Positions 24,392 through 55,909 of a stretch of 64,000 bases of DNA are shown here, one piece after another (positions within the stretch are counted from its first letter, which is position 1; the number at the start of each line of letters is the position of its first letter). The DNA comes from Candidatus Dormiibacterota bacterium (GTDB taxonomy: Bacteria; Chloroflexota; Dormibacteria; Aeolococcales; Aeolococcaceae). The notes beneath the pieces are model-generated. The model was not told the origin of the DNA and made no database searches. It saw only the letters and a list, made by a program, of their open reading frames with translations. The translations under genes and the position numbers were made by a program. The stretch covers positions 1,580-65,579 of the forward strand of contig PKWB01000147.1 of assembly GCA_003131685.1 (NCBI GenBank), written 5' to 3'.

Positions 24392-24404
24392 GAGACGCTG
24401 GTCG

Positions 24405-31910: not shown

Positions 31911-34067
31911 TCATGTGATCGCGAACGCCGCCGCCATCGACCCCTGCCAGGGCGCTGACGTGATCAACCGCAGATTCGGCAGTTTGGCGACGCAATTGAC
32001 ACTCCACGGGTTCATGGGCGAAGGGATGGTGTGCGCGCCCATGAAGAGGATGCCGGCGCCCGTCAGGTCGGCCTCATGTTGAATGGCCGACGCGGCATCA
32101 GCAGGGTCGGCACACGCTTTGCTGACGGCGATGTCCAGTGGCAGGGTCAGGGCTCCGGACTCGAAGCCGTTGGGGACCATCGGGGTCAGATCCGTGAGCC
32201 CGGCCAGCCACATACCCGCATCGTTGCCGCTGTTGGTCATGACCACGGTGGAGCTCGGATATTCGTCCGTCAGCGTGTTCAACACCGTGAGGTCCGCTGG
32301 AGTGACCAGCGAGCGGGTGGCCACCGCGTGCTGGTACACGCCGAGCTCGTATGAGGCGCCGACCACCAGGCACACGATGGCGATGACGCCCAGGGCCAGC
32401 GGCGCGGCAGCGAATCGATGCCCGCCCACGCGGAATCGAGTGGCGACAAAAGCGGGAACTTCCGCGCGGTAAACGTAGAGAACCCAGGCGACCACCACCG
32501 CCGCTGCGGTGATTGCCATCGCAGGGATCCATGGGCGCAATGCCGTCAATGGATCGTAGAGGCCCAGCGGATAGGTGTAGACCGCGTACTGGCCGATGAG
32601 ATAGGTCCACAAACGGCCGAGCGAATGGCGCACCAGGACGGCGACTCCGGCGGCGAGGACGCCGGCCACGGTCGCGCCGATCTGCAACTGTCGCGTCCGC
32701 GACAGCGAGCGCATCACGCTGATGATCGCGAGGAAACCGGCGCCAAGGACGAGCGGGATCAACCAGTACTGATAGCCGAGGATGCGATCCTGCTCGGCCC
32801 ACGGAAAGATGAGCCGCCAGAGCTTCGCGAGCTTGTGCCAGTAGAAGTCGTCCACCATGAATGCGACCAGCAGCACCTGGGCCACGAGCACCCAGAGCAT
32901 TCGACGCTGGACGATCAGCGCCACGACGCCGATCAGGTACAGCGCGAACGCAACCGGACTGATGAGATCGGTCTGCGCAATCGATGCGAGGATCACATGC
33001 ACGTGTATCGGTGTGCTCGTGACCGGGATCGAGGCCGACGAGGGCTGGGTCGCGGTGGGTGGGGGAACGTGGGGCGACCGCGTCAGCAGGGTCACGACGA
33101 CGGCGCCGGCGAGCACCGCCCCCGCCGCGACGCCCACCCGGATGAGCGCGACTCGCGGATTGGCGCGCACCACCTGCACCACCGTGATCGCTAGCAGGCC
33201 ACACGCGACCACCGCGCCGGTGAACACCTCGAGACCGTGTATCACCCAGATGGATGCGGTGATGGCAAACAGCAGGAGTGCGGTGTCACGCGTGAAGACA
33301 CCCCGAAAGACTCGTAGTGCGGCAACGACGAAGGGGACGATGAGCGTCGAGTCGACGATCTCGGGAAAGCGGCCGACGATCGCCTGAAACGATGGAAAGG
33401 CAAGCCCGAGCGCGAAGAAGGGAACCACCGCTGCGAGTGCGACAGATCCGGTCCCCTCGAGCGCGAGAAGGCTGAGTGACACAGGAATCAGCACCAGCGT
33501 CACCGTGATCACCGGTCCCATCGCCATCGCGGGCGATGGGGCGCCGAGCCACGACACCACGGCGGCCGTCGCCTCGAACCCGGGGCGCACGCGCACGAAT
33601 TCGGTCCCCTCGATCGGGATCCGGATCAGCGGCAGCACATCGTGCGTTCGCGCAATCGTGTTGGCGAGCCCTCCGTGCGTCGCCGTGTCCCAGTCGGGAG
33701 GGAGCACCTGGCCATGGAGGGCCCAGAAGAAAACCGATGCCCCGATGAGACCGGCAAGGAGCGCAGGAATCGGTACCCACCAGGGAGAGGCGACGCTGAC
33801 GGCGGGGGAAGCCCGGCGCCAGCGGAGCACCGCGGCGGCCCCAAGCACCACCAGCAGCGGCAGCACGGTGGCCGGCTCGAAGGGGATGTGCGCGTCGTGC
33901 ATCGCCATCCCGGCGACGCCGATGAACCCTGCGGACATCCCCGGGGACATCGCAAGTCTCGTCCACCATCGCCACTCCGGAGCGAGCAGGGTCGCAAGGG
34001 CATAGCCAGGGAGCAGTGCCGCAATCACCACCCCGGGGAGCGATTGCGCGAAGTCTTGGAGTGACAC
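31911..34067 (-). CDS. Large polytopic membrane protein, GT-C-like candidate
   Basis: 718 aa, 13 or more hydrophobic segments, soluble C-terminal domain. Divergent from the priming phosphotransferase. No conserved motif confidently recognised. Confidence 0.45.
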   Translation of the reverse strand: MSLQDFAQSLPGVVIAALLPGYALATLLAPEWRWWTRLAMSPGMSAGFIGVAGMAMHDAHIPFEPATVLPLLVVLGAAAVLRWRRASPAVSVASPWWVPIPALLAGLIGASVFFWALHGQVLPPDWDTATHGGLANTIARTHDVLPLIRIPIEGTEFVRVRPGFEATAAVVSWLGAPSPAMAMGPVITVTLVLIPVSLSLLALEGTGSVALAAVVPFFALGLAFPSFQAIVGRFPEIVDSTLIVPFVVAALRVFRGVFTRDTALLLFAITASIWVIHGLEVFTGAVVACGLLAITVVQVVRANPRVALIRVGVAAGAVLAGAVVVTLLTRSPHVPPPTATQPSSASIPVTSTPIHVHVILASIAQTDLISPVAFALYLIGVVALIVQRRMLWVLVAQVLLVAFMVDDFYWHKLAKLWRLIFPWAEQDRILGYQYWLIPLVLGAGFLAIISVMRSLSRTRQLQIGATVAGVLAAGVAVLVRHSLGRLWTYLIGQYAVYTYPLGLYDPLTALRPWIPAMAITAAAVVVAWVLYVYRAEVPAFVATRFRVGGHRFAAAPLALGVIAIVCLVVGASYELGVYQHAVATRSLVTPADLTVLNTLTDEYPSSTVVMTNSGNDAGMWLAGLTDLTPMVPNGFESGALTLPLDIAVSKACADPADAASAIQHEADLTGAGILFMGAHTIPSPMNPWSVNCVAKLPNLRLITSAPWQGSMAAAFAIT

Positions 34068-34269: not shown

Positions 34270-35877
34270 TTGGGCTCCCGTTCCAGAGATCTTGAAGCGT
34301 CCCCGGAGGGTTCCATGGCAAGCCGGCGAGCGAGTGGCACTGGGCGGGGGGATCGCGTCACGGTCGAGCTTGACGGTGCGCCAGAGCCCCATGTTGATCG
34401 CCCCAAGCACGTTCAGCTGGTCGGCCAGCCCGGCGTAGCGCCGTCCGCCTTCTGGCCGACGAGTGTCTACCCTCGCATCGAATCCCGTTCGCAGCGCGTC
34501 TCCGTCCGGCGGTGGATCGCCCTCCTGGTCGTCCTCGATGCGGTGATCGCCACCCTCGCGGTGGCGGTTGCGACGCTCGCCATCTTCGGAGCCTCGCCCG
34601 AGAGGTTGAACGACCGGCTGCCATACGCGGCGATCGCAGCCACCTTCCCGGCGCTCTGGGTTGCCGCGATGCTGCTGAGCGGCTCGTACGCCCGTCGCTA
34701 CCTGGCTGCCGGGCCCGAGCAATACCGGCGCGTCTGCAATGCGTCGATCTGGATCCTCGCGCTCATCGGCTTCACGTCATACGTGCTTCGCGCCGACTTC
34801 TCGCGCGGCCTGGTGCTGATCACGATTCCGACCGCCGCGCTGCTGACGCTGCTGGCCCGCTGGGCCGCGCGCAAGGCGTTGCGCAGTCGATTCGGAGATG
34901 GCGTCGCGATCCACCGCATCGTGGAAGTCGGACCGGGCAAGGGAGCGGAGCAGCTTCGCAATTACATCGATCGAAATACGCATACCGGCTTCTCGGTGGT
35001 GGGTGTCGTCGCGACCGACGCGCTTGCCGAGGACGAACCCATCGATGTCGACGAGATCGTCAACGAGGTGAGGCGTCTCGACGCCGACACGATCGCCTTT
35101 GTCGGAACGACCCATTCGACGGGCGGCGAGCTGCGGCGAATGTCATGGGCGCTCCAGGGCTCGGGTATCCGGTTGCTGGTGGTCCCGGATCTTGCCGACA
35201 TCGCCGGCCCCCGCATCGTGATGCACCCGGTCGATGGCCTGCCACTGCTCGAGATCTGCGAGCCGGAGCTGAGCGGACCCGCTCGGGTCGTGAAATCCGG
35301 GTTCGATCGCGTCGCGTCGCTCTTCCTGATCATCGTCCTGAGCCCGGTGCTTGCGGCGATCGCGGTGGCCGTCAAGCTCAACGACGGCGGGCCGGTGTTC
35401 TTCCGGCAGCGCCGAATTGGCAAGGAAGGACGCGCGTTCAACATCTGGAAGTTCCGCAGCATGCGCGTCGGCGCGGGTGCGCTCCTGCAACCGGTTGAGA
35501 CCACCACCGGCGAAGGGCAGATGCTCGTGAAGACGCCGTCAGACGATCGGGTCACCTCGGTCGGTCGGTTCCTCCGCAGATATTCACTGGACGAGCTGCC
35601 CCAGCTGTTCAACGTGCTGATCGGGACCATGTCGCTGGTCGGCCCGCGGCCGCTGGTCCAGGACGAGGTCGACAGCTTCGGCCACGGCGCCCATGCCCGG
35701 CTGCTGGTGACGCCCGGGATGACCGGGCTCTGGCAGGTCCGCGGGCGCTCCGAGCTCCCCTGGGAGCAGCGCGTGCATCTCGATCTCTACTACGTCGAGA
35801 ACTGGTCGATCTGGCTGGACATCTCGCTCCTGTGGAGCACCCTTCGCGCGATCGCGCACTCCAACGGAGCGTACTGA
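34270..35877 (+). CDS. Polyprenyl glycosylphosphotransferase (WbaP/CpsE-like priming sugar transferase)
   Basis: N-terminal TM bundle plus the bacterial sugar-transferase C-domain (PVFFRQRRIGKEGRAFNIWKFRSM...DELPQLFNVLIGTMSLVGPRP). Confidence 0.85.
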   Translation: MGSRSRDLEASPEGSMASRRASGTGRGDRVTVELDGAPEPHVDRPKHVQLVGQPGVAPSAFWPTSVYPRIESRSQRVSVRRWIALLVVLDAVIATLAVAVATLAIFGASPERLNDRLPYAAIAATFPALWVAAMLLSGSYARRYLAAGPEQYRRVCNASIWILALIGFTSYVLRADFSRGLVLITIPTAALLTLLARWAARKALRSRFGDGVAIHRIVEVGPGKGAEQLRNYIDRNTHTGFSVVGVVATDALAEDEPIDVDEIVNEVRRLDADTIAFVGTTHSTGGELRRMSWALQGSGIRLLVVPDLADIAGPRIVMHPVDGLPLLEICEPELSGPARVVKSGFDRVASLFLIIVLSPVLAAIAVAVKLNDGGPVFFRQRRIGKEGRAFNIWKFRSMRVGAGALLQPVETTTGEGQMLVKTPSDDRVTSVGRFLRRYSLDELPQLFNVLIGTMSLVGPRPLVQDEVDSFGHGAHARLLVTPGMTGLWQVRGRSELPWEQRVHLDLYYVENWSIWLDISLLWSTLRAIAHSNGAY

Positions 35878-35919: not shown

Positions 35920-37251
35920 ATGATTGCGCCCGTTGTGGAACTGACCGGCGAGGGGCGGCGACTCGTCGAGCGGATCGGGGATCGCAGCGCTCGGATCGGG
36001 ATCGTCGGGCTCGGATACGTCGGTCTCCCAACGGCGGTCGCGTACGCCGACGCCGGCTTCACGGTGGTGGGGGTCGACACCAACGCCGAGCGATGCGCGG
36101 CGATCATGGCGGGCGAGAGCTACATCGAGGATGTGCCCTCGAGCGACGTGGCACGGGCGCGGCTCGATGACCGGCTGACCTCGGTCACCTCGCTGGCAGC
36201 GGCCGGCGACCTCGATGTCGTCGACATCTGCGTGCACACCCCGCTCGGCGACACGCGCGAACCCGACACGTCGGCCATCGAGGCGGTGGGCGAGGCGCTG
36301 ATCGCGTGCCAGCGTCCTGGTCAGCTGATCGTGCTCACCAGCACGAGCTACCCGGGAACCACGGAGGATGTCCTCCGCCCCATCCTCGAACGCTCGGGAC
36401 TGGTGACCGGCGTGGACGTCTTTCTCGCCTTCGCCCCCGAGCGGATCGATCCCGGGAACAGGCGGTTCACGCTGCGCACGACGCCGAAGGTCGTGGGTGG
36501 CGTCGACGATGCTTCGACCGAGGTTGCGCGACAGGCGCTCCTGACCATCGTCGACGTCGTGACCCCGGTGCGTGATGCAACCACCGCTGAAATGGTCAAG
36601 GTCCTCGAGAACACCTTTCGCATGATCAACATCGGCTTTGCCAACGAGGTCGCGCAGATGTGCCGCCGCCTCGGAGTGGATGTCTGGGAGGTCATCGAGA
36701 GCGCCGCCACCAAACCGTACGGATTCATGCCGTTCTATCCGGGTCCCGGCGTTGGGGGGCACTGCATCCCGGTTGATCCCTCATATCTGCAATGGAAGAT
36801 GCGCAACCTCGACTTCCGCACCCGGTTCATCGACCTCGGTAACGACGTGAACCGGGGGATGCCGGATTACGTCGTGCAACGAGCCGACGATGTCCTCAAT
36901 GACATCGGGCGCAGCATGCGTGGCTCGCGCATTCTCCTGGTCGGGGTTGCGTACAAACCCAACATCGGTGACGTTCGCGAGTCGCCGGCGATCGAGGTGG
37001 CCGATCGGTTGCTTAGTCGCGGCGCGCTCGTCCGATACGTCGATCCCCACGTTGCGTCGCTCTCCACCCATGGTGGCGTGAGCCTTCGGGGGGTGGAGCT
37101 CACCGCCGCCGAGCTCGAGGCGAGTGAGCTCGTGGTCATCACCACGGCACACGATGCGATCGACTGGGCACTGATTCGAGAACGCGCCCCGCTCGTGCTC
37201 GACACGCGCGGCGTGCGCGGTCAGGGTCGCGCGGGCTGGCATACGCTGTAG
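35920..37251 (+). CDS. Nucleotide-sugar dehydrogenase (UDP-GlcNAc/ManNAc 6-dehydrogenase, WecC/WbpA-like family)
   Basis: Rossmann IGIVGLGYVGLPTAVAYA and the catalytic Cys region (GGHCIPVDP) of the UDP-glucose/GDP-mannose dehydrogenase family. Confidence 0.85.
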   Translation: MIAPVVELTGEGRRLVERIGDRSARIGIVGLGYVGLPTAVAYADAGFTVVGVDTNAERCAAIMAGESYIEDVPSSDVARARLDDRLTSVTSLAAAGDLDVVDICVHTPLGDTREPDTSAIEAVGEALIACQRPGQLIVLTSTSYPGTTEDVLRPILERSGLVTGVDVFLAFAPERIDPGNRRFTLRTTPKVVGGVDDASTEVARQALLTIVDVVTPVRDATTAEMVKVLENTFRMINIGFANEVAQMCRRLGVDVWEVIESAATKPYGFMPFYPGPGVGGHCIPVDPSYLQWKMRNLDFRTRFIDLGNDVNRGMPDYVVQRADDVLNDIGRSMRGSRILLVGVAYKPNIGDVRESPAIEVADRLLSRGALVRYVDPHVASLSTHGGVSLRGVELTAAELEASELVVITTAHDAIDWALIRERAPLVLDTRGVRGQGRAGWHTL

Positions 37252-37253
37252 CG

Positions 37254-38228
37254 TCAGTCGGGAGCGGTCTGCCCCCAGGATTCGAGTGTTCGCCGGATTC
37301 CCTCATCGAGGCCGACATGCGCGGTCCAGCCGAGCCGTTCGGCCGCGCGAGCCGCCGACGGGACACGCCGGCGAGTGTCCTCGAAGCCGGCACCGAAGTG
37401 CTGCTCGTAGCTCTCGTGAACGATCGTGGAGCTGCTGCCGCTCGCCTCGATGACCTTGCGTGCGAGGTCGGCGATGGTCATCTCGGTCGTCGCATCGCCG
37501 ATGTTGAACACCTGCCCCTCGGCGGGCTGGGTCTCCATCGCGAGCACGGTGCCGTCGATGCAGTCGTCGATGTAGGTGAAGCAGCGCGACTGGAGGCCGT
37601 CGCCATACACGGTCACGGGGTCGCCGGCGAGCGCCTGACGGACAAAGGTGGCCATCACGCTGCCGTAGCCCTTGGGATCCATGCGCGGTCCATAGATGTT
37701 GAAATAGCGGACGATCACTCCGCGCAGCCCGTGTGCCGCATGCGCGAGGAGGAGATGCTCATCGAGCGCCTTCGCAGTGGCGTACGACCAGCGCTGGATG
37801 ACGGTCGACCCGAGGATGCGATCATCGTCCTCGTGCATCGGAACCCGGCCGCCGCGTCCGTAGACCTCGCTCGAGCTGCTGATCAGCACCTTGCGTTCGT
37901 GACGCGCACACGCGGCGAGAATATTCTCGGTACCGCGACTGTTGACCTGGAGCGATCCGAGGGGGTTGGCGATGATGTGTGCGACCCCGACCGCCGCAGC
38001 GAGATGGAACACTCGATCACAGTCGCCCACAAGGGTTTCGACCAGCGCATCGTCGAGGATGGTGCCTTCGACGATGCGAACCTTGCCACTGTCTGCGTGC
38101 CGCCCGATGTTGTCGCGGCGCCCGGTGGAGAAGTCGTCGAGAGCGATCACCGCGTCGCCATGCTCGACCAGGCGATCGACAAGATGGCTGCCGATGAAAC
38201 CGGCGCCGCCCGTCACCAACGTCCTCAC
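37254..38228 (-). CDS. NAD-dependent nucleotide-sugar epimerase/dehydratase (extended SDR)
   Basis: [20 protein letters not shown] Rossmann motif and the catalytic YATAK (YxxxK). Confidence 0.85.
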
Positions 38229-38251: not shown

Positions 38252-39289
38252 ATGGGCCATCCCGACTCCAGCGCGCTGCCGTTCGTCAGTGTCGTCATCC
38301 CCGTGTTCAACGAGGAGCGATATATCGAGGCGTGCCTTGCCTCCGTGCTCGATCAGGACTACCCCGAGGATCGCTACGAGGTGATCATCGCCGACGGGGG
38401 ATCGACGGATCGCACCCGTGAGATCGTTGACTCAACGGCGGTGTTGCACCCGATGGTGCGCTTGATCGACAACCCGGGGCGGACGCAAGCGCACGGCCTC
38501 AATCTCGCCATCCTCGCGAGCCGCGGCGAGTTCATCGCTCGGCAGGACGGGCACGCGGAATGGTCGCCGCATCACCTCCGCCGCTCCATAGAGCTGCTCA
38601 TCCAAACCGGTGCGGACAACGTCGGCGGCCGTGCGGACGGCGAGGGAGCGGGTGTCACCGGACGCGCGATCGCACGCGCCATGCGATCCCCGTTCGGCGT
38701 GGGCGGGGCACGCTATCGGTATTCGAACCGGCTCGAGGAGTTGCCGACGGTCTTTCCCGGCACCTTCCGCAGGACGGCCTTTGAGCGCGTCGGCCTCTAC
38801 GACGAGGCCTACCCGCCGCATGAGGACTACGAGCTGAACCACCGGATCCGACAGACCGGGGGCCGCGTGCTCTTCAGCCCCGATGTCCCCACCAGGTACT
38901 GGGTGCGCGAATCCATTCCCGCTCTGGCTCGCCAGTACTTCCGCTACGGGCGCGCGAAGGTTCGGGTTGCCCGGGCGAGCCTGGGGGTGATCCATCCGTA
39001 TCATCTGGCCGCGCCAGCACTCGTGGCAGCCCTCCCGGTGGCTGCGGCGCTCGGGTTCACGAGGCGGGGACGGCGTGCCGTTGCAGCCGGCGCCGCCGTG
39101 TACGCGGTGGCGTGTGTTGCGGCCGGTATACAGGCCGGGGCGGGCGAGACGCCCTCGGTCCGGGTGCGAATCCCCGCGATCTTCCCGGTGCTGCACATCG
39201 CCTGGGGAACGGGGTTCTGGGTTGGCGTGGTTGAGGCCGCGTTACGGATTGATATCGGGGGTGGCTCTCCGCCGGTCCTGCCGTCCTAG
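38252..39289 (+). CDS. GT2-family glycosyltransferase with a C-terminal membrane anchor
   Basis: VSVVIPVFNEERYIEACLASVLDQDY...YEVIIADGGSTD (GT-A DxD-type). Hydrophobic C-terminus. Confidence 0.8.
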   Translation: MGHPDSSALPFVSVVIPVFNEERYIEACLASVLDQDYPEDRYEVIIADGGSTDRTREIVDSTAVLHPMVRLIDNPGRTQAHGLNLAILASRGEFIARQDGHAEWSPHHLRRSIELLIQTGADNVGGRADGEGAGVTGRAIARAMRSPFGVGGARYRYSNRLEELPTVFPGTFRRTAFERVGLYDEAYPPHEDYELNHRIRQTGGRVLFSPDVPTRYWVRESIPALARQYFRYGRAKVRVARASLGVIHPYHLAAPALVAALPVAAALGFTRRGRRAVAAGAAVYAVACVAAGIQAGAGETPSVRVRIPAIFPVLHIAWGTGFWVGVVEAALRIDIGGGSPPVLPS

Positions 39290-39348: not shown

Positions 39349-40137
39349 GTGGCGATGACAGGCGGAACCACCGCTCGAACTCTCAGTTCCGTGCGCGTTC
39401 GGCGTTTGATCATCGAGCAGTCGAAGCGTGCCCATGTGGGACACATCGGCTCCGCACTCTCGGTCGCGGATATTCTGGTTGCGCTGTTCTCCGGAACGGT
39501 CGATCCCGAGGTGGATGTCTTCATCCTGTCAAAGGGTCATGCTGCCCTGGCGCAGTACTGCGTGCTCGCCGAGCTTGGTTTGATCACGCACGAGATGCTC
39601 GACACGTACTGCGGGGACGACACTCAGCTCGGCGTCCACCCCGATCACACGTTGGCCGGCATCACGTTCTCCACCGGCTCGCTCGGTCATGGACCATCAC
39701 TCGGTGCCGGCGTGGCGCTCGCGAAGCGCATCGCGGGCCGGCCTGGAAGAGTGTTCGTGCTGATGAGCGATGCCGAGCTCAACGAGGGGTCGGTGTGGGA
39801 GGCGGTGATGTTCGCCGGGCATCACAGGCTCGACAACCTCACGGTGATACTCGACAACAACGGGCAGCAGGCGCTGGCGCCGACCGCTGAGGTGATCAAC
39901 CTCGCTGGTGTTGATCAACTCGTGCAAACGCTTGGATGGGAGAGCAGGCGCGTCGATGGGCACAACGTTGACGCGCTGACCATCGCCTTCGAGGCTCGCG
40001 CACCAGGAAGGCCACTCTTCATGATTGCGGACACGGTTGCCGGCAAGGGTGTGAGCTTCATGGAACGCCAGGTCAAGTGGCACTACCTGCCGGTGGACGA
40101 CGCGCAATTCGCCCTGGCGTTGAGTGAGATCGGGTGA
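39349..40137 (+). CDS. Transketolase, N-terminal (TPP-binding) subunit of a split transketolase
   Basis: GHIGSALSVADILVALF...SKGHAALAQY...GSLGHG and the TPP-binding GDG-like region. 262 aa. Confidence 0.85.
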   Translation: MAMTGGTTARTLSSVRVRRLIIEQSKRAHVGHIGSALSVADILVALFSGTVDPEVDVFILSKGHAALAQYCVLAELGLITHEMLDTYCGDDTQLGVHPDHTLAGITFSTGSLGHGPSLGAGVALAKRIAGRPGRVFVLMSDAELNEGSVWEAVMFAGHHRLDNLTVILDNNGQQALAPTAEVINLAGVDQLVQTLGWESRRVDGHNVDALTIAFEARAPGRPLFMIADTVAGKGVSFMERQVKWHYLPVDDAQFALALSEIG

Positions 40138-41054
40138 GAAAGCAATTCGTTTCCACGCTGATCGACATCGCCAACCACGACGATCGCGTCGTCCTGCTCA
40201 CCGCCGACCTGGGGTTCATGGTGCTCGAGCCCTTTGCCGAACATCACCCGGATCGCTTCTTCAACGTCGGTGTCGCCGAGGCAAACATGATGTCGCTTGC
40301 CGCGGGCATGGCGCATGAAGGCCTGATCCCGTTCTGCTATTCAATCGCAACCTTTGCGTCGATGCGTGGCTACGAGCAGTTCAGGAACGGGGCTGTCCTG
40401 CATCAGCTCCCGGTGCGCATCGTCGGGATCGGTGGTGGCTTCGCGTACGGCACTGCGGGGCCGACCCACCATGCGCTCGAGGACATCGCGCTGATGCGGG
40501 TGCAGCCGGGTGTCGGCATCGTCGCACCGGCTGATGACGGCCAGGTGGACCGCGCCTTGCGCGATCACTACGCGCGACCGCAGCCGATGTATCTGCGCCT
40601 GGCGAAGGAGACAGCCAGTCACCCGGAGCTTGCCGGCCGTTTTCACTGGGGTCGCCTCGAGGTCATCGGTGACGGTGATATCGCGATTGTCGCCATCGGC
40701 TCGATGACCGGCGTCGCGCTCGAAGTTCGGCGACGGCTTCAGGCCGAGGGCATCCAGACGGCGGTCGCCGTGGCCGCTTCGATCGCCCCGGCTCCGACCG
40801 ACGATCTCGTCGCGCTCCTGGCCTCGAAGAGCGCATGCATCACCATCGAGGACCACCGCCCGATTGGCGGACTCGGATCGTTGGTGGCCGAGACGATCGC
40901 CGGCCACGGCCTGGGCGTGCGCCTGATCCGGTCCGGGGTTACCGACCCGGTCGGCGAGACCACCGGTTCCGAAGCATTTCTGCGCCGCCGAAACGGCCTC
41001 GATGTTGATGGGCTCATGGCCGCAGTACGGAGGGTCGCTCTTGTCCCCGCCTGA
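40134..41054 (+). CDS. Transketolase, C-terminal (pyrimidine-binding) subunit of a split transketolase
   Basis: 306-aa Pyr/TK-C domains. Start overlaps the N-subunit stop (translational coupling). Confidence 0.85.
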   Translation: MRKQFVSTLIDIANHDDRVVLLTADLGFMVLEPFAEHHPDRFFNVGVAEANMMSLAAGMAHEGLIPFCYSIATFASMRGYEQFRNGAVLHQLPVRIVGIGGGFAYGTAGPTHHALEDIALMRVQPGVGIVAPADDGQVDRALRDHYARPQPMYLRLAKETASHPELAGRFHWGRLEVIGDGDIAIVAIGSMTGVALEVRRRLQAEGIQTAVAVAASIAPAPTDDLVALLASKSACITIEDHRPIGGLGSLVAETIAGHGLGVRLIRSGVTDPVGETTGSEAFLRRRNGLDVDGLMAAVRRVALVPA

Positions 41055-42044: not shown

Positions 42045-42998
42045 TCAGGCGCTGCGCGCGGCCGCCAACGCCGGAAGGAACTCCACCGGATGCGCGGCGA
42101 GCCATTCTGCAGTTCGACTGAGGCCCTCAACGAGGGTGGTCGTGGCCGCCCAACCCAGTTCCGACCTGATGAGCGCTGGGTCCCCGACCCAGACTCGAGT
42201 GTCCCAAGCGCGCTCCGGGTAACCACCCCACTGCGGCTTGACGGCTATCGAGAAGGTATCGGTGGTCTTGGCGACGAGCTCCGCGAGGGAGGTCTGCACG
42301 CCCGATGCGACGTTGTAGATCGTGCTCATGTTCGGCGATGACGCTGCGGCGATATAGGCATCGACGACATCCTCGACGTACACGAAGTCTCGCACCACGC
42401 TCGGCGATGCCAGGGGCGGAAGCGTCCCCGTGAGCGCGGCGCGCACGAGCGTGGGAATGAGTCTGCGCTCCTCTTCGAAGGGTCCGTATGCCGAATACAA
42501 ACGCAGGGTTGTGACTGGGACTCCTCGCGTGCGAGCACGCTGGCAGAGCCATGTCGCCGCGGCCTTCGTGGACGCGTAGTCGCTGTTCGGGCACGGCGGT
42601 TCGTCCTCGCGCGGGGCGTGATTGCGGTCGCCGTATTCGGATGACGTGCCGGTGTTGATCACCACGGCACAGCCGTGGCGCTCGGCAGCCGCCAGGAGTG
42701 TCGCCGTCCCGACGACGTTGCTGTGCGCCATGGCGACGGTGTCGGTTTGAAACGAGTAGGCTCCGTGCGCCGCGAGATGAAAGATCCACTCCGGGCGAGC
42801 CGCTCTGAACGCAGACTCCATGTCCCCGCGGTCTGCGATATCGCCCTGGACTCGACGCAGGTCCGTGAGAGCGTCGAGCCGGCCGGTGTCGGTCATCGGC
42901 TGGAGGATCGCAAAGACGTCGTGACCGTCCTCGACCAGGCGGCGGACCAGGTTGGCGCCGACAAAACCGGCGGCGCCGGTTACAAGACAGCGGATGAT
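42045..42998 (-). CDS. NAD-dependent epimerase/dehydratase (extended SDR). The Rossmann motif is encoded upstream of the first ATG; no canonical start codon.
   Basis: The ORF from ATG 42896 lacks the GxxGxxG. In-frame upstream codons 42897-43031 encode IIRCLVTGAAGFVGANLVRRLVEDGHDVFAILQP, with stop at 43032-43034. Confidence 0.7.
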   Translation of the reverse strand: MIRCLVTGAAGFVGANLVRRLVEDGHDVFAILQPMTDTGRLDALTDLRRVQGDIADRGDMESAFRAARPEWIFHLAAHGAYSFQTDTVAMAHSNVVGTATLLAAAERHGCAVVINTGTSSEYGDRNHAPREDEPPCPNSDYASTKAAATWLCQRARTRGVPVTTLRLYSAYGPFEEERRLIPTLVRAALTGTLPPLASPSVVRDFVYVEDVVDAYIAAASSPNMSTIYNVASGVQTSLAELVAKTTDTFSIAVKPQWGGYPERAWDTRVWVGDPALIRSELGWAATTTLVEGLSRTAEWLAAHPVEFLPALAAARSA

Positions 42999-44005
42999 TC
43001 GCTCTCCCTGACCCCGGCTGGTTCCATCAACTCATGCGTACCGTTCGGCGAGGATGGACGGTTGCGGATCTCCGCGACGATATAGGGAGGCCGGCGCTTC
43101 ACCTCCTCATAGATATGTGCCAGGTATGAACCGATGACGCTCAGACAGAGCAGTTGGATTCCCCCGACGAAGAGGATCAGGACGATGACCGACGTGAATC
43201 CCGTCGGGGCTGAGGCTGGGTTGACGATGCGAACCACGATCTCCACGGCGATGGCGACAAACGCGGCGATCGTGGTCAGCAGACCGATGACGGTGATCAT
43301 CTCGAGCGGGATGTACGAGAAGGAGAAGATCGCCTTGCGAGCCCATCCGATGTTGCGCAACAGTGAGTTGGTGGTCTTGCCGAACATGCGCTCCGGTCGG
43401 TGATATGGCACCCCGATCTGACGGAAGCCAACCCATGCGCGAAGACCCCTCAGGAATCGATTGGTCTCAGGAAGATGGTTGAGGGCATCGACGACTCGCC
43501 GGTCCATGAGCGAGAAGTCACCTGCGTCAAGGGGCACGGGCACGTACGACGCTGCGCGGAACAGACGATAGAAGAGTCGATACGCCACTTGAAGAAACCG
43601 ATTCGCGTCGCGCTTGACGCGAGCCCCGTACACCACGTCGTATCCCTCGACCCATTTGGCGTAGAAGGCTTCGATGAGCTCGGGGGGATCCTGCAGGTCA
43701 CCGTCGAGCAGCACCACGGCGTCTCCGGTTGCGATGCGCATGCCGCTCGTGAATGCGCTCTGAGATCCGAAGTTGCGACTGTGGGTGATCACGGTGACGT
43801 GGGAATCCCGGTCGGAGAGGGTGGCGAGAACCTGCTCGGCATCGTCTGGACTGGCGTCGTTGACGAAGATGATTTCGTAGTCGACCTCGAGCGTCGTGAA
43901 GACCGTGACCAGACGCTCGTGCATGATCGGGATCGCCGGTGCATCTCGGTAGCAGGCGATGATTGCGCTGATCTTGCGCCGACGTCCTCGGATCGAGTGC
44001 GGCAT
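42980..44005 (-). CDS. GT2 polyprenyl-phosphate sugar synthase (ArnC/GtrB/Ppm1-like)
   Basis: IIACYRDAPAIPIMHERL...IFVNDASPDD...DGDLQDPPELI plus two C-terminal TM helices typical of GtrB-like enzymes. Confidence 0.85.
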   Translation of the reverse strand: MPHSIRGRRRKISAIIACYRDAPAIPIMHERLVTVFTTLEVDYEIIFVNDASPDDAEQVLATLSDRDSHVTVITHSRNFGSQSAFTSGMRIATGDAVVLLDGDLQDPPELIEAFYAKWVEGYDVVYGARVKRDANRFLQVAYRLFYRLFRAASYVPVPLDAGDFSLMDRRVVDALNHLPETNRFLRGLRAWVGFRQIGVPYHRPERMFGKTTNSLLRNIGWARKAIFSFSYIPLEMITVIGLLTTIAAFVAIAVEIVVRIVNPASAPTGFTSVIVLILFVGGIQLLCLSVIGSYLAHIYEEVKRRPPYIVAEIRNRPSSPNGTHELMEPAGVRESESSAVL

Positions 44006-44130: not shown

Positions 44131-44934
44131 ATGGAGCCGCCGCAGCCAAGCCACGCCGAGAGTCACTGGTCAGCCTTCGACGCGAACGGGATCCAGCGGC
44201 TCGTCGCTGCCGAGGATCGGCACTTCTGGTTCCGGGCTCGCAATGAGACCATCGCCGCCCTGGCGCGGCGCCCGATCCAGGAGTTGCAGGACGGATTCCA
44301 CATTCTGGAGGTGGGGTGCGGAATCGGCAACGTGCTTCGCGTTCTCCAGCGCCTCGCCGCAGGACGTGGCAGTGTCGCGGGGCTTGAGTTGAGCCGTGAC
44401 GCCGCCTCCGTCGCGCGAACGCGAACCGGGTTGCCGGTCACCGCGGGGTACCTCTCGGATCTGGATCCGGCGTTGCGTTTTGACATCGTCGCGGCCTTCG
44501 ACGTCCTTGAGCACATCGAAGACGAAGCCGGTGTCCTGGGACAGATGAAAGGCCGGCTGCGGCCGGGTGGGCGCATCCTCCTCACGGTTCCGGCGCACCA
44601 AAGCCTCTGGAGTCCGTTCGACGTGGCGTCGGGGCACGAGCGACGCTACACGCTCGCATCGCTCCGGCGGGCGCTCCGGAAGTCAGGCTTGGAGGTCGAG
44701 TACATGACCTACTTCATGAGCCTGCTGTTCCCGATGATGTGGGTGCGGCGGCGCCTGCTGAAAACCGAGGCGCGTGACATGAGTGCGCTTCTTGACTCCG
44801 AGTTCCAGATCGTCCCCGGGTTGAACGCACTCGCCTATGAGGTGCTCCGGCAGGAGAAGCACGTGGTCGCGGCACGGCGGCGCCTGCCCATGGGGGCATC
44901 CATCGCCGCGGTCGCCGTACCTATCCGGTCGTAG
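44131..44934 (+). CDS. Class I SAM-dependent methyltransferase
   Basis: ILEVGCGIGNV (motif I), IVAAFDVLEHIED, GGRILLTVP. Confidence 0.75.
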   Translation: MEPPQPSHAESHWSAFDANGIQRLVAAEDRHFWFRARNETIAALARRPIQELQDGFHILEVGCGIGNVLRVLQRLAAGRGSVAGLELSRDAASVARTRTGLPVTAGYLSDLDPALRFDIVAAFDVLEHIEDEAGVLGQMKGRLRPGGRILLTVPAHQSLWSPFDVASGHERRYTLASLRRALRKSGLEVEYMTYFMSLLFPMMWVRRRLLKTEARDMSALLDSEFQIVPGLNALAYEVLRQEKHVVAARRRLPMGASIAAVAVPIRS

Positions 44935-45499
44935 GCCGGCCTGCTGGGAAGCGCTCCCGGAACTCATCCGCGAGGCACGAGAGCACGTGGAGACCCTCGA
45001 ACCGACCGTCGCGGAAGATGTGATCGCGGAGCATGATGTCGTGCTTGAAACCGGCCGCCTCATGGAATGGGATGACAGCGGCGTTGCTCTCGGTGACGTG
45101 CGCGATGACCTTGTGCAAACCGAGATGGTTGAAGCAGTAGTCGAGCACGAGTATCTCGGCATCCTTGGCGAGGCCCTCGCCCCGACGGTCCAATTCGCCG
45201 ATGAAGATCGGCCCGAACTCGCACCGCCGATTTCGCCAGTCGAGATCCATGATGCCGACGGTGCCCACCGGCACAGGACGGGGGTCGTTGGGTCCCTTTC
45301 GGGCGTTGATGAGCCAGAGCCTGCGTGACCCGTTCGCGGTCAGGCCGGAGAGGAAGGCAGCCTGCTGCGTGGTGCCGAGCGGCTCGTATTCGATGAAGCC
45401 GCGGTGCACCTCGGGCAGGTTTCGCCAGCGCACGATGACGGCGACATGCTCCGGTTCGATCGCGCTGAGGATGACGCGCTTGGTCTCCATCATCGGCAT
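44921..45499 (-). CDS. GNAT-family N-acetyltransferase (WecD/RimL-like)
   Basis: 193 aa from MPMMETK. GNAT acetyl-CoA motif region (IGELDRRGEGLAKDAEILVLDYCFNHLGLHKV). Start TGATG-overlaps the upstream aminotransferase stop. Confidence 0.7.
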   Translation of the reverse strand: MPMMETKRVILSAIEPEHVAVIVRWRNLPEVHRGFIEYEPLGTTQQAAFLSGLTANGSRRLWLINARKGPNDPRPVPVGTVGIMDLDWRNRRCEFGPIFIGELDRRGEGLAKDAEILVLDYCFNHLGLHKVIAHVTESNAAVIPFHEAAGFKHDIMLRDHIFRDGRFEGLHVLSCLADEFRERFPAGRPTTG

Positions 45500-46698
45500 C
45501 ACTGCTCGACGGCGAAGCTGCAGACTGACTCGATCACCGCGTCGACATCGGTCTCCTGCATGTTGGTGTAGAACGGGAGGCGAATCAGGCGCATGGCGAT
45601 ATCCTCGGTGACCGGACAGTCCGAGACGGCCTGTACGTGTAACCCAAACGGCGACAGATGCAGCGGCTGGTAGTGAAACACGGCGAGAATCCCGGCAGCG
45701 CGTAGATGGCCGATGAGCGCGTCTCGCGATTGCGTGGACGGCATGATCATGTGAAAGAGATGGTATGGCGTCCGGCAGTGGTCGGGAACGAACGGCATCT
45801 GAACACTGTTGGCTCGCGACCATGCCGCAAGGTCCGCTGCATAACGGTTCCAGACCGTGCTGCGATGCTCCCAGACCCACTCCCGGTCTTCGAGCTGAGC
45901 CAGCAGCATGGCGGCGAGCAGGTCGGACGGCAGGTAGCTCGAGCCGATGTCCACCCAGGTGTATTTGTCGACGAGACCACGGAAGAACTTGCGCCGGTTC
46001 GTCCCCTTCTCACGGATGATCTCCGCGCGCTCGAGGTAGCTGGGATCGTTGATGACGATGGCCCCTCCCTCGCCGCACGAGAAGTTCTTGGTCTCGTGGA
46101 AGCTCTGCGCCGCCATCACGCCGAAGGTTCCGAGCGGCTTGCCGCGATACTCACCAAAGAGGCCGTGCGCGTTGTCCTCGACGACGGCGACGCCGTGCCG
46201 GCCGGCGATTTCCATGATCGCGTCCATCTCGCATGCGACGCCCGCATAGTGGACCGGAACGATTGCGCGCGTTCTGGGAGTAATGAGTGACTCGAGCCTG
46301 TCCTCATCGAGATTCAACGTGTCCCTGCGGATATCGATGAAGACCGGCGTGGCCCCACGGAGCACGAAGGCATTGACGGTGGAGGAGAAGGTGAACGACG
46401 GCACGATGACCTCGTCACCCGGTGCGATGTCAAGCAGCAACGCCATCAATTCCAACGCGTGCGTGCCGGAGGTGGTGAGCAGAATCGCCGCGTCTTCGAG
46501 CAGCGGACTGAGCAATTCCTGGCATCGTCGAGTGAACTCGCCGTCGCCTGAGAGATGCCCGCTGTGGAGCGCCTGGGCAACGTACTCGTCGACGAGGCGA
46601 GTGTGCGTGGGACGATTGAACGGAATTTTGAGCGGTGTGGTGGTCACCGTGGGATCCTTGATGCCGGCGTGTGCGGGGGCATAGCTTATTGGAGACAT
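45499..46698 (-). CDS. DegT/DnrJ/EryC1/StrS-family sugar aminotransferase (WecE-like, 4-keto-6-deoxy sugar transaminase)
   Basis: PLP-lysine motif SFHETKNFSCGEGG and AHGLFGEYRGKPLGTFG. Start taken at MSPISYAP. Confidence 0.85.
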   Translation of the reverse strand: MSPISYAPAHAGIKDPTVTTTPLKIPFNRPTHTRLVDEYVAQALHSGHLSGDGEFTRRCQELLSPLLEDAAILLTTSGTHALELMALLLDIAPGDEVIVPSFTFSSTVNAFVLRGATPVFIDIRRDTLNLDEDRLESLITPRTRAIVPVHYAGVACEMDAIMEIAGRHGVAVVEDNAHGLFGEYRGKPLGTFGVMAAQSFHETKNFSCGEGGAIVINDPSYLERAEIIREKGTNRRKFFRGLVDKYTWVDIGSSYLPSDLLAAMLLAQLEDREWVWEHRSTVWNRYAADLAAWSRANSVQMPFVPDHCRTPYHLFHMIMPSTQSRDALIGHLRAAGILAVFHYQPLHLSPFGLHVQAVSDCPVTEDIAMRLIRLPFYTNMQETDVDAVIESVCSFAVEQ

Positions 46699-46706
46699 AG
46701 CCGATC

Positions 46707-48827
46707 GTGACCACGGCCCAGCGCCCTGGTCGACCTGGAAGCATAAGCTCTTTGGCCGTGGGGTTTCACGCATCTGTGGCAAGGCCTCCGCTGCGACTCT
46801 CGCTTCGCGGATTGGCAGCGGTCATCATGCCGCTCGCTGCCGTTGAAGGCCTTGTCTATGTGCTTGTCCTTCACGACTCGGTCGTTTGGTGGCTTTCGTT
46901 CACCGTCTATCTGGCACTCGGTGTCATCCTCCCCGGGACGCTGGTCGCCGAGGCGCTTCTCCGCTGGCGCAGCGACTGGCTCACGTGGGTAGGGCTCGGC
47001 TGGGCGTTGGGCCATGTGCTGGAAGTGGTCTCGATTCAACTTGCCAAAACGGTGGGTGTCCCTCGGCTTTTCCTCCTGTGGATTCCGATCGCGTACCTGC
47101 TCGTGTGGAGAAGAAGGAGGTGGCAGGGTGAAGTCACTGCATTGACGCACCCGCGACGAATTGCGCTGCTGCTGGCGATACTCATGGCCTTCGCCACCAC
47201 CACGTTCGTCGTGCTCAACCTGGTCGAGCTCTCGCCGCAGCCGACGTACCAATCCGACGTCTGGTTTCACATCACCGAGGCAGCCGAATTCCGGGACCAC
47301 CTGAACACGGGCGACCCGCGCATTGCGGGCCAGCCCTACGCCTATCACACGTTGGAGTACGGGCCCGCCGTCGGGGCGAATCTTGCCGTCCAGGTTCCCC
47401 TCGCGAACCTCATCACGCGGTATTCCGGACTGAGCATGGTGTGGCTGCTCGTTCTTCTCCTCTTCAACTCCGCACGCACGATCCGCGGCCCCACGGCCGG
47501 GTTCCTCGCTGCTGCTTTGATCGTTGCTCCGCTCGACGTCTTCTCGTTGATCTCGAGCAAGCTGAGCTTCGGGAGCTCGATCATCTACAGCGGGCTCGAC
47601 CTGAGCACCAGTACCTTGGTTGGATTCTGGGCTCTGGCGGCGCTGTTCCTGCCTCTTCGATGGGCGCTCGCGGGCGGGCGATTGCGCGACCTCTGGGTGG
47701 TCGCGCTCCTCGCGTACATGGCAGCCGGATCAAAGAGCGTGCCCGGCCCCCTGTTGCTTGTCGGTGTTGGTGCGGTGATTGTCAGCATGCTGCCGCGCCG
47801 CCGCAGACTCACCGTGCGCCCAATGCTCCTGCTCGGGGTGTTTGCGGTCGTCTTCTGCCTCACCGCGCTGCCGGTGATACTGCGTCCGACCGTTGCGGAC
47901 TCGACGACGATCACGTTCGCATCCGTCGCGCGACTCAGCCCATACGCTGATCAGCTCACTCGACTGCCCGATTGGCTGCGACTGGCCTTCTATCCGATTG
48001 GATTCTCCTTTGCTCTCTGGGTCGGACTCGGGGTGGGCGTCTGGAAGCTGGCGCGGGCGGGCGAAGCGGATCTCTGCTGGTTTCTCGTCAGCGTGCTGGT
48101 GTTCGCAGCGGTCCTCGTCGACGCGACATCGATACCGGGAGCCTCGCAGCTCTTCTTCCTCTATATGGCGATGGTGCTCGTCGCGCCGGTGGCTGGAGTT
48201 GGGCTGTTCGACCTGGGACAGATGCTCTGGCGACGGCGAGCGAGCACGACCCCCGTGGTGGTGCTCATCCTTCTGGTCGGTGCGGTTGCGGTGAATCTCA
48301 AGGTCGGTGGCGCGCCGTCGGTGCCGTTCGATGACGGATCTGTCTATGCATCAAAGTTCTTTGTTCACGTCACCGAGGGCGTGGACGCGTATCGCGATCC
48401 GGGGCCTCCCTCCCCGCCACTGCGAGTGTGGGACTCCGGTGGCAGCCTGCTCCGCGTGACCCCTGAGATCGTCCAGGGCCTGAGCTGGTTGCGGGGCGTC
48501 GCCGTCCCATCTACGGTGGTCGCAACCAACGTGCCCGGAGCCGCGTTGTACGCGTCGCTCTGCGAGTGTGCGGAGTATTACCAGACGGAGGAATATGCGC
48601 CGGCGTTCGTCGCGGCCAAGCTGGCGGGCACAACCACAACGGCCTTCTCGGGGCGGGCACGACTTCTGGAAGCCTGGTTCGACGGGGCGCCGGGCAGCGT
48701 CGTCGCGTTGCGAAAGGCAGGGATCACCTACTTGATCGTCGATCGGGTGAATGGGTTTCCCATCCCTGTGGCAGGCATGCCGAAGCCGGCGTTCATGGAC
48801 CGCGACATCGCTATCTACCGGATCTAG
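46707..48827 (+). CDS. GT-C-like polytopic membrane glycosyltransferase candidate (paralog of 50735..52960)
   Basis: 706 aa. Shared motifs with the paralog: acidic first-loop motif (HITEAAEF vs EYPDFPYF), P..AG.P.Y.HTLEY vs PGLAGIALHYEW, and C-terminal ITYLIVDRVNG vs VHLLFIDRLHG. Confidence 0.55.
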   Translation: MTTAQRPGRPGSISSLAVGFHASVARPPLRLSLRGLAAVIMPLAAVEGLVYVLVLHDSVVWWLSFTVYLALGVILPGTLVAEALLRWRSDWLTWVGLGWALGHVLEVVSIQLAKTVGVPRLFLLWIPIAYLLVWRRRRWQGEVTALTHPRRIALLLAILMAFATTTFVVLNLVELSPQPTYQSDVWFHITEAAEFRDHLNTGDPRIAGQPYAYHTLEYGPAVGANLAVQVPLANLITRYSGLSMVWLLVLLLFNSARTIRGPTAGFLAAALIVAPLDVFSLISSKLSFGSSIIYSGLDLSTSTLVGFWALAALFLPLRWALAGGRLRDLWVVALLAYMAAGSKSVPGPLLLVGVGAVIVSMLPRRRRLTVRPMLLLGVFAVVFCLTALPVILRPTVADSTTITFASVARLSPYADQLTRLPDWLRLAFYPIGFSFALWVGLGVGVWKLARAGEADLCWFLVSVLVFAAVLVDATSIPGASQLFFLYMAMVLVAPVAGVGLFDLGQMLWRRRASTTPVVVLILLVGAVAVNLKVGGAPSVPFDDGSVYASKFFVHVTEGVDAYRDPGPPSPPLRVWDSGGSLLRVTPEIVQGLSWLRGVAVPSTVVATNVPGAALYASLCECAEYYQTEEYAPAFVAAKLAGTTTTAFSGRARLLEAWFDGAPGSVVALRKAGITYLIVDRVNGFPIPVAGMPKPAFMDRDIAIYRI

Positions 48828-54729: not shown

Positions 54730-54827
54730 CGGTCGTGGCCCATGCGACCCAAACTATCATCTGGATGCATGTCCGCTCCTCCTCCCACTCCGTCTGCTGA
54801 GAGCGATACAAGGCAAATCGCTCAGTC

Positions 54828-55907: not shown

Positions 55908-55909
55908 GG

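Follow-up and report, generated by a model that had tools for sequence, protein, structure and literature searches.

Here we describe a two-subunit transketolase (TK) encoded in a 64,000-nucleotide stretch of contig PKWB01000147.1 (hereafter the window), which derives from a Candidatus Dormibacterota metagenome-assembled genome (MAG). The two chains, TK-N and TK-C, appear from their sequences to be a distinct and uncharacterised transketolase-like subfamily that lacks the canonical sugar-phosphate site. We consider it an even chance that they form an alpha2beta2 thiamine diphosphate (ThDP) enzyme which, together with the short-chain dehydrogenase/reductase (SDR) encoded nearby as SDR2, builds a C-branched sugar for a surface glycan by way of a nucleoside diphosphate (NDP)-4-keto sugar. 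The observations behind this reading are the domain content of the two chains, the active-site residues that they keep and those that are altered, a gene cassette conserved across phyla, natural SDR::TK-N fusions, and the GtrB-like nature of the glycosyltransferase GT2_b.

Gene pair and active site

TK-N (39349..40137, forward strand) consists of the ThDP/PP domain and is 262 aa long from its GTG codon (Pfam Transketolase_N, E = 9.1e-25). An alternative ATG at 39355 gives 260 aa and is the probable start, because it was called on L001, a public, 100% identical contig used for gene-call comparison, and because 260 aa is typical of most close homologues. TK-C (40134..41054, forward strand; 306 aa) carries the Pyr and TKC domains (Transket_pyr, E = 4.1e-31; Transketolase_C, E = 5.1e-16), and its GTG start and the TGA stop of TK-N share a GTGA overlap. 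With PF00456 on TK-N and with PF02779 and PF02780 on TK-C, the transketolase domain set is complete. Upstream, the glycosyltransferase gene GT2_a (38252..39289) ends 59 nt before TK-N and, downstream, the methyltransferase gene MT1 overlaps the TK-C stop (41052-41054), all in DNA of 63-70% GC. The first-pass annotation of the window had described translationally coupled genes for the two halves of a transketolase inside a sugar cluster, placed between a glycosyltransferase and a methyltransferase gene. That description is confirmed as accurate, far beyond chance.

The best PDB matches of both chains are to the split TK of Carboxydothermus hydrogenoformans (6YAK, E = 7e-50 for TK-N; 6YAJ, E = 6e-51 for TK-C), which shares with them the alpha2beta2 split architecture, the cofactor and donor residues and about 40% identity, at E values near 1e-50 per chain (PMC7661550). 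We aligned the window enzyme residue by residue with this functional split TK and with human TK, using EcTK numbering; the alignments leave no ambiguity at the key columns. We also surveyed the same columns in 80 related loci, with counts taken over the loci covering each column. The metal ligands Asp141 and Asn171 of TK-N are kept, as is the cofactor-activating Glu49 of TK-C (EcTK E411). The donor-site residues His32, His64, His97 and His245 of TK-N (EcTK H26, H66, H100 and H261) are likewise all present, and these four are invariant across the 80 loci. His112 of TK-C (EcTK H473) is kept in the window enzyme, at a position that is variable among the loci and occupied by His, Tyr, Phe or Trp. 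This pattern of residues argues for catalytic competence with a TK-type donor site.

The residues of TK-C that face the acceptor differ from those of the C. hydrogenoformans enzyme. Where the latter has the Ser385 segment DLSKST, a His, a Glu-Asp pair and an Arg, the window enzyme has DLGFMV, Gly100 (His461), a Thr-Ala pair (Asp469 to Ala108) and Lys158 (Arg520), and the ThDP motif GDG has become SDA. Among the EcTK phosphate and aldose residues R358, S385, H461, R520 and D469, only Arg358 is kept (as Arg2). In canonical transketolases, the altered TK-C positions bind the phosphate or the C2 hydroxyl of the acceptor, and the canonical acceptor residues are retained in both the C. hydrogenoformans and the human enzyme. 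Nearly all of the 80 loci share the hydrophobic DLG[F/Y/W], Gly for His461, Ala, Asn, Gln or Glu for Asp469, and usually Lys for Arg520; SDA is found in nearly all, with SDG or GDG in a few. The motifs SDA, DLG[F/Y/W] and G-x-G-G...Y-G are diagnostic of the subfamily.

In a neighbour-joining tree, the subfamily loci, including the window enzyme, form a clade apart from the three canonical split TKs compared, namely those of C. hydrogenoformans, Phaeobacter and a Solidesulfovibrio pseudaminic-acid (Pse) cluster. The altered active site, the separate clade and the conserved cassette described below bear out the earlier idea of a pathway-specific split TK. The first-pass annotation had assigned it a dedicated two-carbon ketol transfer on sugar phosphates; here the two-carbon transfer stands as the most likely chemistry, but a sugar-phosphate substrate does not agree with the replacement of the phosphate and aldose residues of TK-C. 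A housekeeping transketolase that is merely split, and lies by chance in a polysaccharide locus, would be in keeping with the approximately 40% identity to the active C. hydrogenoformans enzyme, as inferred from the alignments. We nevertheless rejected it as very improbable on the evidence of the window and of the 20-kb loci. The enzyme lacks Ser385, His461 and Asp469 and has Lys in place of Arg520, the NCBIfam NF004559 scores of the two chains (206 and 153 bits) sum to less than the 488-bit equivalog cutoff, and the glycan-gene setting holds strictly across phyla, where fusions to an SDR also exist.

Relatives of TK-N at 70-89% identity come almost solely from Candidatus Dormibacterota MAGs, with one locus at 73% labelled Saccharimonadales. 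Below these, at about 45-58%, come sequences from Actinomycetota, Chloroflexota, Acidobacteriota, Verrucomicrobiota, Planctomycetota, Omnitrophota, Obscuribacterales and Nitrospirota. Plasmids searched by tblastn gave mostly matches below 40% identity. The Phaeobacter plasmid match is a canonical-type split TK among transporter and catabolic-enzyme genes; the Paenibacillus and Azospirillum plasmid matches belong to the subfamily. On Azospirillum argentinense plasmid p5 (L086, 4430-12065), the subfamily-type TK, with DLGFQV and SDG, is flanked by genes for two B12-binding radical S-adenosylmethionine (SAM) proteins, a methyltransferase, an NAD(P) oxidoreductase and a kinase.

Conserved cassette and SDR partner

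The conservation of the neighbourhood was surveyed by tblastn of the window cluster proteins against the 80 loci and by all-against-all clustering of open reading frames (ORFs). Co-occurrence was counted, within a partner radius of 9 kb, in those 64 loci whose flank extends for 7 kb or more on one side. TK-C adjoins TK-N in 63 of the 64 loci, and an SDR2 homologue lies within the radius in 54, a GT2_b homologue in 40 and an MT1 homologue in 37. These counts identify TK and SDR as the invariant core. Cassette loci occur in phyla that include Dormibacterota, Actinomycetota, Chloroflexota, Acidobacteriota, Verrucomicrobiota, Planctomycetota and Omnitrophota, and their strict glycan synteny agrees with the earlier view that the pair stands outside a pentose-phosphate context.

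Cassette A, the window type, comprises TK-N, TK-C, GT2_b, MT1 and SDR2, often with a second methyltransferase and a protein with 9-16 transmembrane (TM) helices. At several loci, proteins with 12-16 TM helices are inserted in the cassette. The embedded membrane proteins as a group, of about 630-740 aa with 9-16 TM helices, match no Pfam or NCBIfam family and show no similarity to the polytopic proteins of the window. Cassette B is a stand-alone, translationally coupled operon for TK-N, TK-C, a short soluble family 2 glycosyltransferase (GT2), a DUF4915 protein, a sulfotransferase and an SDR. It appears as a six-gene operon in L088 (10001-15513), in L089 (10001-15512) and in about 17 more loci (e.g. 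L030, L032 and L068), with hosts in Acidobacteriota, Chloroflexota, Planctomycetota, Omnitrophota and Obscuribacterales. No other glycan genes lie near it in L088 or L089.

SDR2 (42045..42998, reverse strand), the constant partner of TK, is an extended SDR of about 317 aa by NCBIfam and Pfam. It has the Rossmann motif GAAGFVG, SSEYG and YxxxK, and its beta2 does not end in an acidic residue. The orthologues of SDR2 share SS(S)EYG and YxxxK and likewise lack an acidic side chain at the beta2 end, where most have Arg (LLVRP). By the standard SDR coenzyme rules, a non-acidic or Arg beta2 end denotes the NADP(H) type, and an acidic residue there marks NAD-retaining epimerases and dehydratases. The lack of an acidic residue and the prevalence of Arg therefore suggest that SDR2 is an NADPH-dependent reductase.

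The ORF listing gives SDR2 as 283 aa lacking the Rossmann motif, and we considered and rejected the possibility that it is a truncated pseudogene. The segment IRCLVTGAAGFVGANLVRRLVEDGHDVFAILQP lies in frame immediately upstream of the listed ORF, behind a conserved ATC codon. No ATG, GTG or TTG precedes the Rossmann motif, and the ATC (42998 or 42995) is the sole possible initiator in eight Dormibacterota loci. The corresponding region spans 42980-43034 on the reverse strand of the window and recurs in L003, L005-L008, L010, L013 and L014; in L005, L006 and L013 a stop codon stands one codon upstream of the ATC, with GGAGG about 7 nt upstream. The in-frame N-terminus and this pattern of ATC, stop and GGAGG indicate that SDR2 is intact, about 317 aa long, and overlaps the end of GT2_b. 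Since its start overlaps the GT2_b stop (TAA, 42982-42980), termination-reinitiation would be an alternative to an ATC start.

The link between the two core proteins is also seen in single polypeptides. At least 14 protein clusters contain SDR::TK-N fusions, among them metagenomic lineages only 37-39% identical to the Paenibacillus protein. They are proteins of about 585-660 aa from Paenibacillus species and metagenomes (L083, 7097-9004; L087, 10001-11776; P0121-P0135), and in P0137 TK-N is fused to a PhyH-type dioxygenase domain instead. On the Paenibacillus cellulosilyticus plasmid (L083; NZ_CP054609, strain KACC 14175; TK genes HUB94_RS00340 and HUB94_RS00335) the gene order begins with rfbF (glucose-1-phosphate cytidylyltransferase) and rfbG (cytidine diphosphate (CDP)-glucose 4,6-dehydratase). 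It continues with a bona fide NDP-hexose C-methyltransferase (PF08421 and PF08484), the 635-aa SDR::TK-N and TK-C, and ends with a TylF-type O-methyltransferase, glycosyltransferases and a GT2-GtrA protein. The SDR portion of the fusion can be aligned along its whole length with SDR2 (E = 7e-23), and the Paenibacillus TK-C is 39% identical to that of the window and shows the same altered motifs, as DLGFSV and GAGFAYGGQG. In the metagenomic L087 operon, an MT1 orthologue (E = 3e-49) and an NTP-transferase are encoded together with a 4,6-dehydratase whose SDKCY motif is of the CDP-glucose type, SDR::TK-N, TK-C and a GtrB-like GT2 with two TM helices that matches GT2_b (E = 2e-53). Judged by its gene content, L087 represents a complete cassette A with an explicit NDP-4-keto-6-deoxyhexose route.

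GT2_b (42980..44005, reverse strand) matches the polyprenyl-phosphate glycosyltransferase GtrB sll0501 (5EKP) at E = 2.6e-69 over residues 11-313, ArnC at E = 2e-45 and the NCBIfam PgfS model at E = 8e-71, the last below the equivalog cutoff. Hydropathy places its two to three C-terminal TM helices within residues 225-296. From these matches, it is predicted to be a polyprenyl-phosphate glycosyltransferase of the GtrB/ArnC (or PgfS) type. In most loci outside Dormibacterota it is 62-75% identical to its counterpart, with a median of 65% vs about 52% for TK.

Proposed branching reaction and its alternatives

We infer the donor, the acceptor, the order of the steps, the direction of the reaction, the role of SDR2 as a reductase after branching and the final acceptor as follows. 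An NDP-4-keto sugar would be the acceptor of TK, as indicated by the nucleotidyltransferase and CDP-glucose-type 4,6-dehydratase that would make it in related operons. In the window, the corresponding step may be the formation of a uridine diphosphate (UDP)-4-keto-pentose by the dehydrogenase encoded at 35920..37251 and the UXS/ArnA-like decarboxylase at 37254..38228, which is conjecture. TK would then load a dihydroxyethyl (glycolaldehyde) unit on ThDP from a ketose phosphate or hydroxypyruvate, and would add this two-carbon unit to the sugar ketone, yielding a tertiary alcohol with a hydroxyacetyl branch. SDR2 would reduce the side-chain ketone, probably with NADPH, and the product would be methylated by MT1 and possibly by MT2. 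Finally, GT2_b would load the finished sugar on polyprenyl phosphate, from which a polytopic transferase would deliver it to a polysaccharide outside the membrane. A branched or higher-carbon sugar that is later methylated had been proposed in the first-pass annotation and is supported as the most likely product.

The nature of the donor deserves separate consideration. The counterpart of EcTK His100 is a Phe in DXS, and its mutation shifts TK towards pyruvate (PMC7661550); because this position is invariant in the subfamily, a hydroxylated two-carbon donor is favoured over pyruvate. The enzyme could still decarboxylate pyruvate in the manner of DXS, of the E1-type alpha-KADH2 enzymes or of YerE, and place an acetyl or hydroxyethyl branch on the keto sugar within the same cassette role. 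Every sugar C2-branching enzyme with experimental support uses pyruvate (PMC12247030), the PDB match of TK-C to DXS about equals that to human TK (E = 1.4e-25 vs 2e-24), and TK-N has weak Pfam matches to DXP_synthase_N and E1_dh. Set against the invariance of the His100 counterpart and of the other TK-N donor histidines, we judge a pyruvate donor unlikely. YerE and alpha-KADH2 (E1 alpha/beta) enzymes, which serve the yersiniose, aldgamycin, kibdelomycin and paulomycin pathways in O-antigens and natural-product sugars, resemble the proposed system in that they use ThDP to attach a C2 branch to an NDP-4-keto-deoxyhexose, after which a YerF-like ketoreduction takes place. They differ in protein family: YerE belongs to the acetolactate-synthase-like DC family and alpha-KADH2 to E1_dh, both with pyruvate as donor, whereas the window enzyme has the TK fold and the TK donor histidines. 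The three-domain fold of YerE-like acetolactate synthases (TPP_enzyme N, M and C) was not matched by either chain, for which Pfam gives TK, DXS and E1-type families only.

The proposed scheme is open to several objections. No nucleotidyltransferase or 4,6-dehydratase gene lies beside TK in the window, and the UDP-4-keto-pentose route is conjecture because the NCBIfam match of the UXS-like SDR is below the cutoff. Cassette B lacks any source of a keto sugar; its SDR may be an oxidase or its chemistry may be different. The S-x-E motif of SDR2 would also suit dehydratases and decarboxylases, the likeness of MT1 to C-methyltransferases is weak, and the hydrophobic substitutions at the mouth of the channel would also fit a lipid-linked substrate. 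Moreover, the subfamily is known from sequence alone, and its precedent in miharamycin and amipurimycin biosynthesis is itself unproven.

Another pathway would start with GT2_b, which would make a polyprenyl-phosphate hexose out of an ordinary UDP-sugar; oxidation by SDR2 would follow, then branching or remodelling by TK at the membrane face, and the methyltransferases would complete the sugar. DprE1/DprE2 and ArnD, which act on lipid-linked sugars, offer a parallel. The nearest matches of GT2_b are GtrB and PgfS, which are plain glucose transferases, the cassette lacks a nucleotidyltransferase or dehydratase in most phyla, the second methyltransferase family often has C-terminal TM helices, and at the channel entrance Phe, Tyr, Trp, Met or Val takes the place of the polar residues that bind phosphate. 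However, hydropathy revealed no membrane segments in TK-N, TK-C, MT1 or SDR2, two fusion-type operons encode the full NDP-sugar route upstream of TK, and the GT2 of cassette B is short and soluble. A lipid-linked substrate thus appears to us an improbable alternative to the NDP-4-keto sugar.

A third possibility is that TK acts in the cleavage direction, as a desmolase would, or on a free sugar or sugar phosphate, for example in trimming a ketol side chain or in providing an aldose for a NeuB-type synthase. The TK reaction is reversible, and the divergent split TK DesAB of Clostridium scindens, which adjoins DesC, a shown 20-alpha-hydroxysteroid dehydrogenase, is hypothesised to cleave a tertiary ketol (PMC3735941). 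The hypothesised substrate of DesAB, R2C(OH)-CO-CH2OH, is a non-phosphorylated tertiary ketol, and its cleavage is the reverse of the reaction proposed for the window TK. The DesAB system differs in its steroid substrate, its catabolic direction, its Zn-dependent dehydrogenase in place of an extended SDR and its lack of glycosyltransferases. The window itself holds genes for NeuB, a PseH-like GNAT and a PseC/WecE-like aminotransferase, and a split TK lies within a pseudaminic-acid cluster on a Solidesulfovibrio plasmid. That TK, however, is canonical and stands outside the subfamily, because it keeps the canonical His, Asp and GDG and groups with the canonical split TKs. Cassette loci beyond Dormibacterota lack NeuB, and the partners that co-vary with TK (SDR, GtrB-like glycosyltransferase and methyltransferases) follow a logic of biosynthesis and export. 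Taken together, cleavage or a free substrate seems rather remote.

The supply of a substrate to NeuB, which the first-pass annotation had suggested, was rejected on the same grounds. NeuB lies 13.8 kb off across several oppositely oriented genes and co-occurs with TK in Dormibacterota loci only; the TK-SDR-GT2-methyltransferase cassette is kept across phyla without it, and the lone Pse-cluster TK is canonical. The analogy once drawn with the AHBA and aminoDAHP pathways fared no better, since the ORFs scanned between 20982 and 60022 contain no family of the aminoshikimate pathway, be it AHBA synthase, aminoDAHP synthase or aminoDHQ synthase/dehydratase. The Solidesulfovibrio carbinolicus plasmid pDCAR1 (L084, 7156-8924) carries its canonical-type split TK, with GDG, His and Asp kept, in a pseudaminic-acid cluster with pseB, pseC, pseF, a NeuB-family gene, FabG, two methyltransferase genes and an ATP-grasp gene. 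It probably represents a different use of a split TK, in nonulosonic-acid tailoring.

The closest precedent for branching of an NDP-4-keto sugar by a TK comes from nucleoside antibiotics. In miharamycin and amipurimycin biosynthesis, split-gene TKs are proposed to add a hydroxyacetyl unit to a keto sugar after the action of an oxidoreductase (Romo 2019; Wang 2020), and a 2025 review reports 13 further Streptomyces split-TK candidates from in silico work, none of them characterised (PMC12247030). The likeness lies in the two-subunit TK, the sugar-tailoring cluster, the partner oxidoreductase and the proposed transfer of a two-carbon ketol onto a ketone to give a tertiary alcohol. Those systems belong to Streptomyces clusters, act on a high-carbon sugar nucleoside and have a function that is only proposed. 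In contrast, the window cassette, compared with them by description only, concerns a cell-envelope polysaccharide, includes a GtrB-like polyprenyl-phosphate transferase and extends over many phyla. The export half of the scheme recalls the Arn (Ugd, ArnA, ArnB, ArnC and ArnT) and Gtr/Pgf (GtrA/B/V; PgfS) systems, in which polyprenyl phosphate receives a tailored sugar from a GT2 of the GtrB/ArnC type. Other features shared with these systems are the adjoining window genes for an NDP-sugar dehydrogenase and an ArnA/UXS-like decarboxylase, and the large polytopic membrane proteins nearby. Unlike in Arn, and again as conjecture, the 4-keto intermediate of the window would be C-branched by TK rather than transaminated by ArnB.

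Literature searches on Dormibacterota and transketolase, and on split TKs in O-antigen, GtrB or ArnC settings, yielded nothing that describes the TK/SDR/GtrB-like cassette or its diagnostic motifs. An exopolysaccharide (EPS) cluster of Actinoplanes missouriensis, wps-2, is listed with methyltransferase, TK-N, TK-C and DegT genes and no functional proposal (PMC13390465). More tentatively, TK and its obligate SDR may be a two-enzyme machine, sometimes in one polypeptide, that gives an activated sugar a (di)hydroxyethyl or hydroxyacetyl carbon branch, with export of the product by a GtrB-like polyprenyl-phosphate route, perhaps through redox-neutral cofactor cycling in which the sugar is oxidised, branched and reduced.

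Polysaccharide locus and biological meaning

The polysaccharide locus spans from about 31.9 to 62 kb of the window. It contains a Bac_transf gene, an NDP-sugar dehydrogenase, a UXS/ArnA-like SDR, three GT2s with C-terminal TM helices, three methyltransferases, a WecE/PseC-like aminotransferase, a PseH-like GNAT, NeuB and several proteins with 10-15 TM helices. A gene for a 15-TM protein (31911..34067, reverse strand; Pfam DUF6541, E = 1e-18; hydropathy) precedes that for the priming polyprenyl-phosphate sugar-phosphate transferase (34270..35877, forward strand; Bac_transf, E = 8.4e-66) at the start of the polysaccharide genes. The NDP-sugar 6-dehydrogenase of the Ugd/WecC type (35920..37251, forward strand) matches the N, central and C domains of UDPG_MGDP_dh and, above the cutoff, TIGR03026 (E = 5e-119), and would feed a uronic acid to the UXS/ArnA-like decarboxylase. 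The latter (37254..38228, reverse strand) has the motif SSSEVYG and, in the alignment, an NAD-type Asp at the beta2 end. Its best NCBIfam match is to the bifunctional UDP-4-keto-pentose/UDP-xylose synthase (E = 7.7e-45, below cutoff), making it a candidate supplier of UDP-4-keto-pentose or UDP-xylose. Both genes flank the cassette in most Dormibacterota loci.

GT2_a (38252..39289, forward strand; Glycos_transf_2, E = 6.7e-30) has two C-terminal TM helices by hydropathy. MT1 (TTG 41041, or ATG 41002, to 42042; forward strand) is a SAM methyltransferase (Methyltransf_23, E = 4e-21) whose N-terminus carries a four-Cys zinc ribbon (CAICG...CLSCG). Residues 38-277 match 5T64/TcaB9 at E = 5e-7 to 2e-5, and it is a remote relative of the NDP-hexose 3-C-methyltransferases TcaB9 and KijD1, to which it aligns weakly though along all of its length, without their C-terminal domain; its identity to the Paenibacillus C-methyltransferase is 25% (E = 7e-11). 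MT2 (44131..44934, forward strand; Pfam), a second SAM methyltransferase, is transcribed divergently from GT2_b. By tblastn and clustering, its positional counterparts at other loci are one family, often with C-terminal TM helices.

Three GtrB-like GT2s with two to three C-terminal TM helices (38252-39289, 42980-44005 and 48824-49837) and three proteins with 13-15 TM helices (31911-34067, with DUF6541, and 46707-48827 and 50735-52960, both without a family) are present in the window. The locus may therefore hold several pairs of a polyprenyl-phosphate-sugar synthase and a membrane transferase, and one of the three polytopic proteins could be a putative GT-C-type transferase that uses a polyprenyl-phosphate sugar. 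Pfam and NCBIfam recognised no ArnT, GtrA, GtrV or known GT-C family in the window. An aminosugar and nonulosonic-acid module (44921-46782 and 52981-57893) includes the WecE/PseC-like aminotransferase, the PseH-like GNAT and the NeuB/PseI-like synthase, which scores just over the PseI cutoff and under that for NeuB. Also encoded in this module are an aminopeptidase-like protein (DUF4910/DUF2172/HTH_47) and a protein of 582 aa that weakly matches Capsule_synth. At 24156-28533, upstream of the glycan locus, a family III CoA-transferase gene and a gene for a 994-aa FAD-oxidase/4Fe-4S/CCG fusion (glycolate or D-lactate oxidase-like) adjoin branched-chain amino-acid ABC transporter genes, apparently unrelated to the TK.

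Experiments have shown ThDP-dependent sugar branching only in pyruvate-using enzymes of the YerE and E1 types, and a TK version has been proposed (PMC12247030). If the two-enzyme reading is true, the window would reveal the first transketolase-based system for sugar C-branching in cell-envelope glycans; the branching hypothesis, if confirmed, would add a biocatalyst for alpha-hydroxymethyl-ketone tertiary alcohols. Since at least one carrier, Paenibacillus cellulosilyticus, is in culture, the hypothesis is directly testable. Its confirmation would also give a function to many genes annotated "transketolase", a label that inflates pentose-phosphate capacity in reconstructions from MAGs. Finally, confirmation would bring to light branched sugars new to the cell envelopes of soil bacteria that are abundant. 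The two-enzyme reading would moreover imply that a class of sugars (branched, methylated or sulfated) has been overlooked in poorly cultured soil groups, where it would be widespread (Dormibacterota, Solirubrobacterales, Acidobacteriota, Verrucomicrobiota and Omnitrophota, among others).

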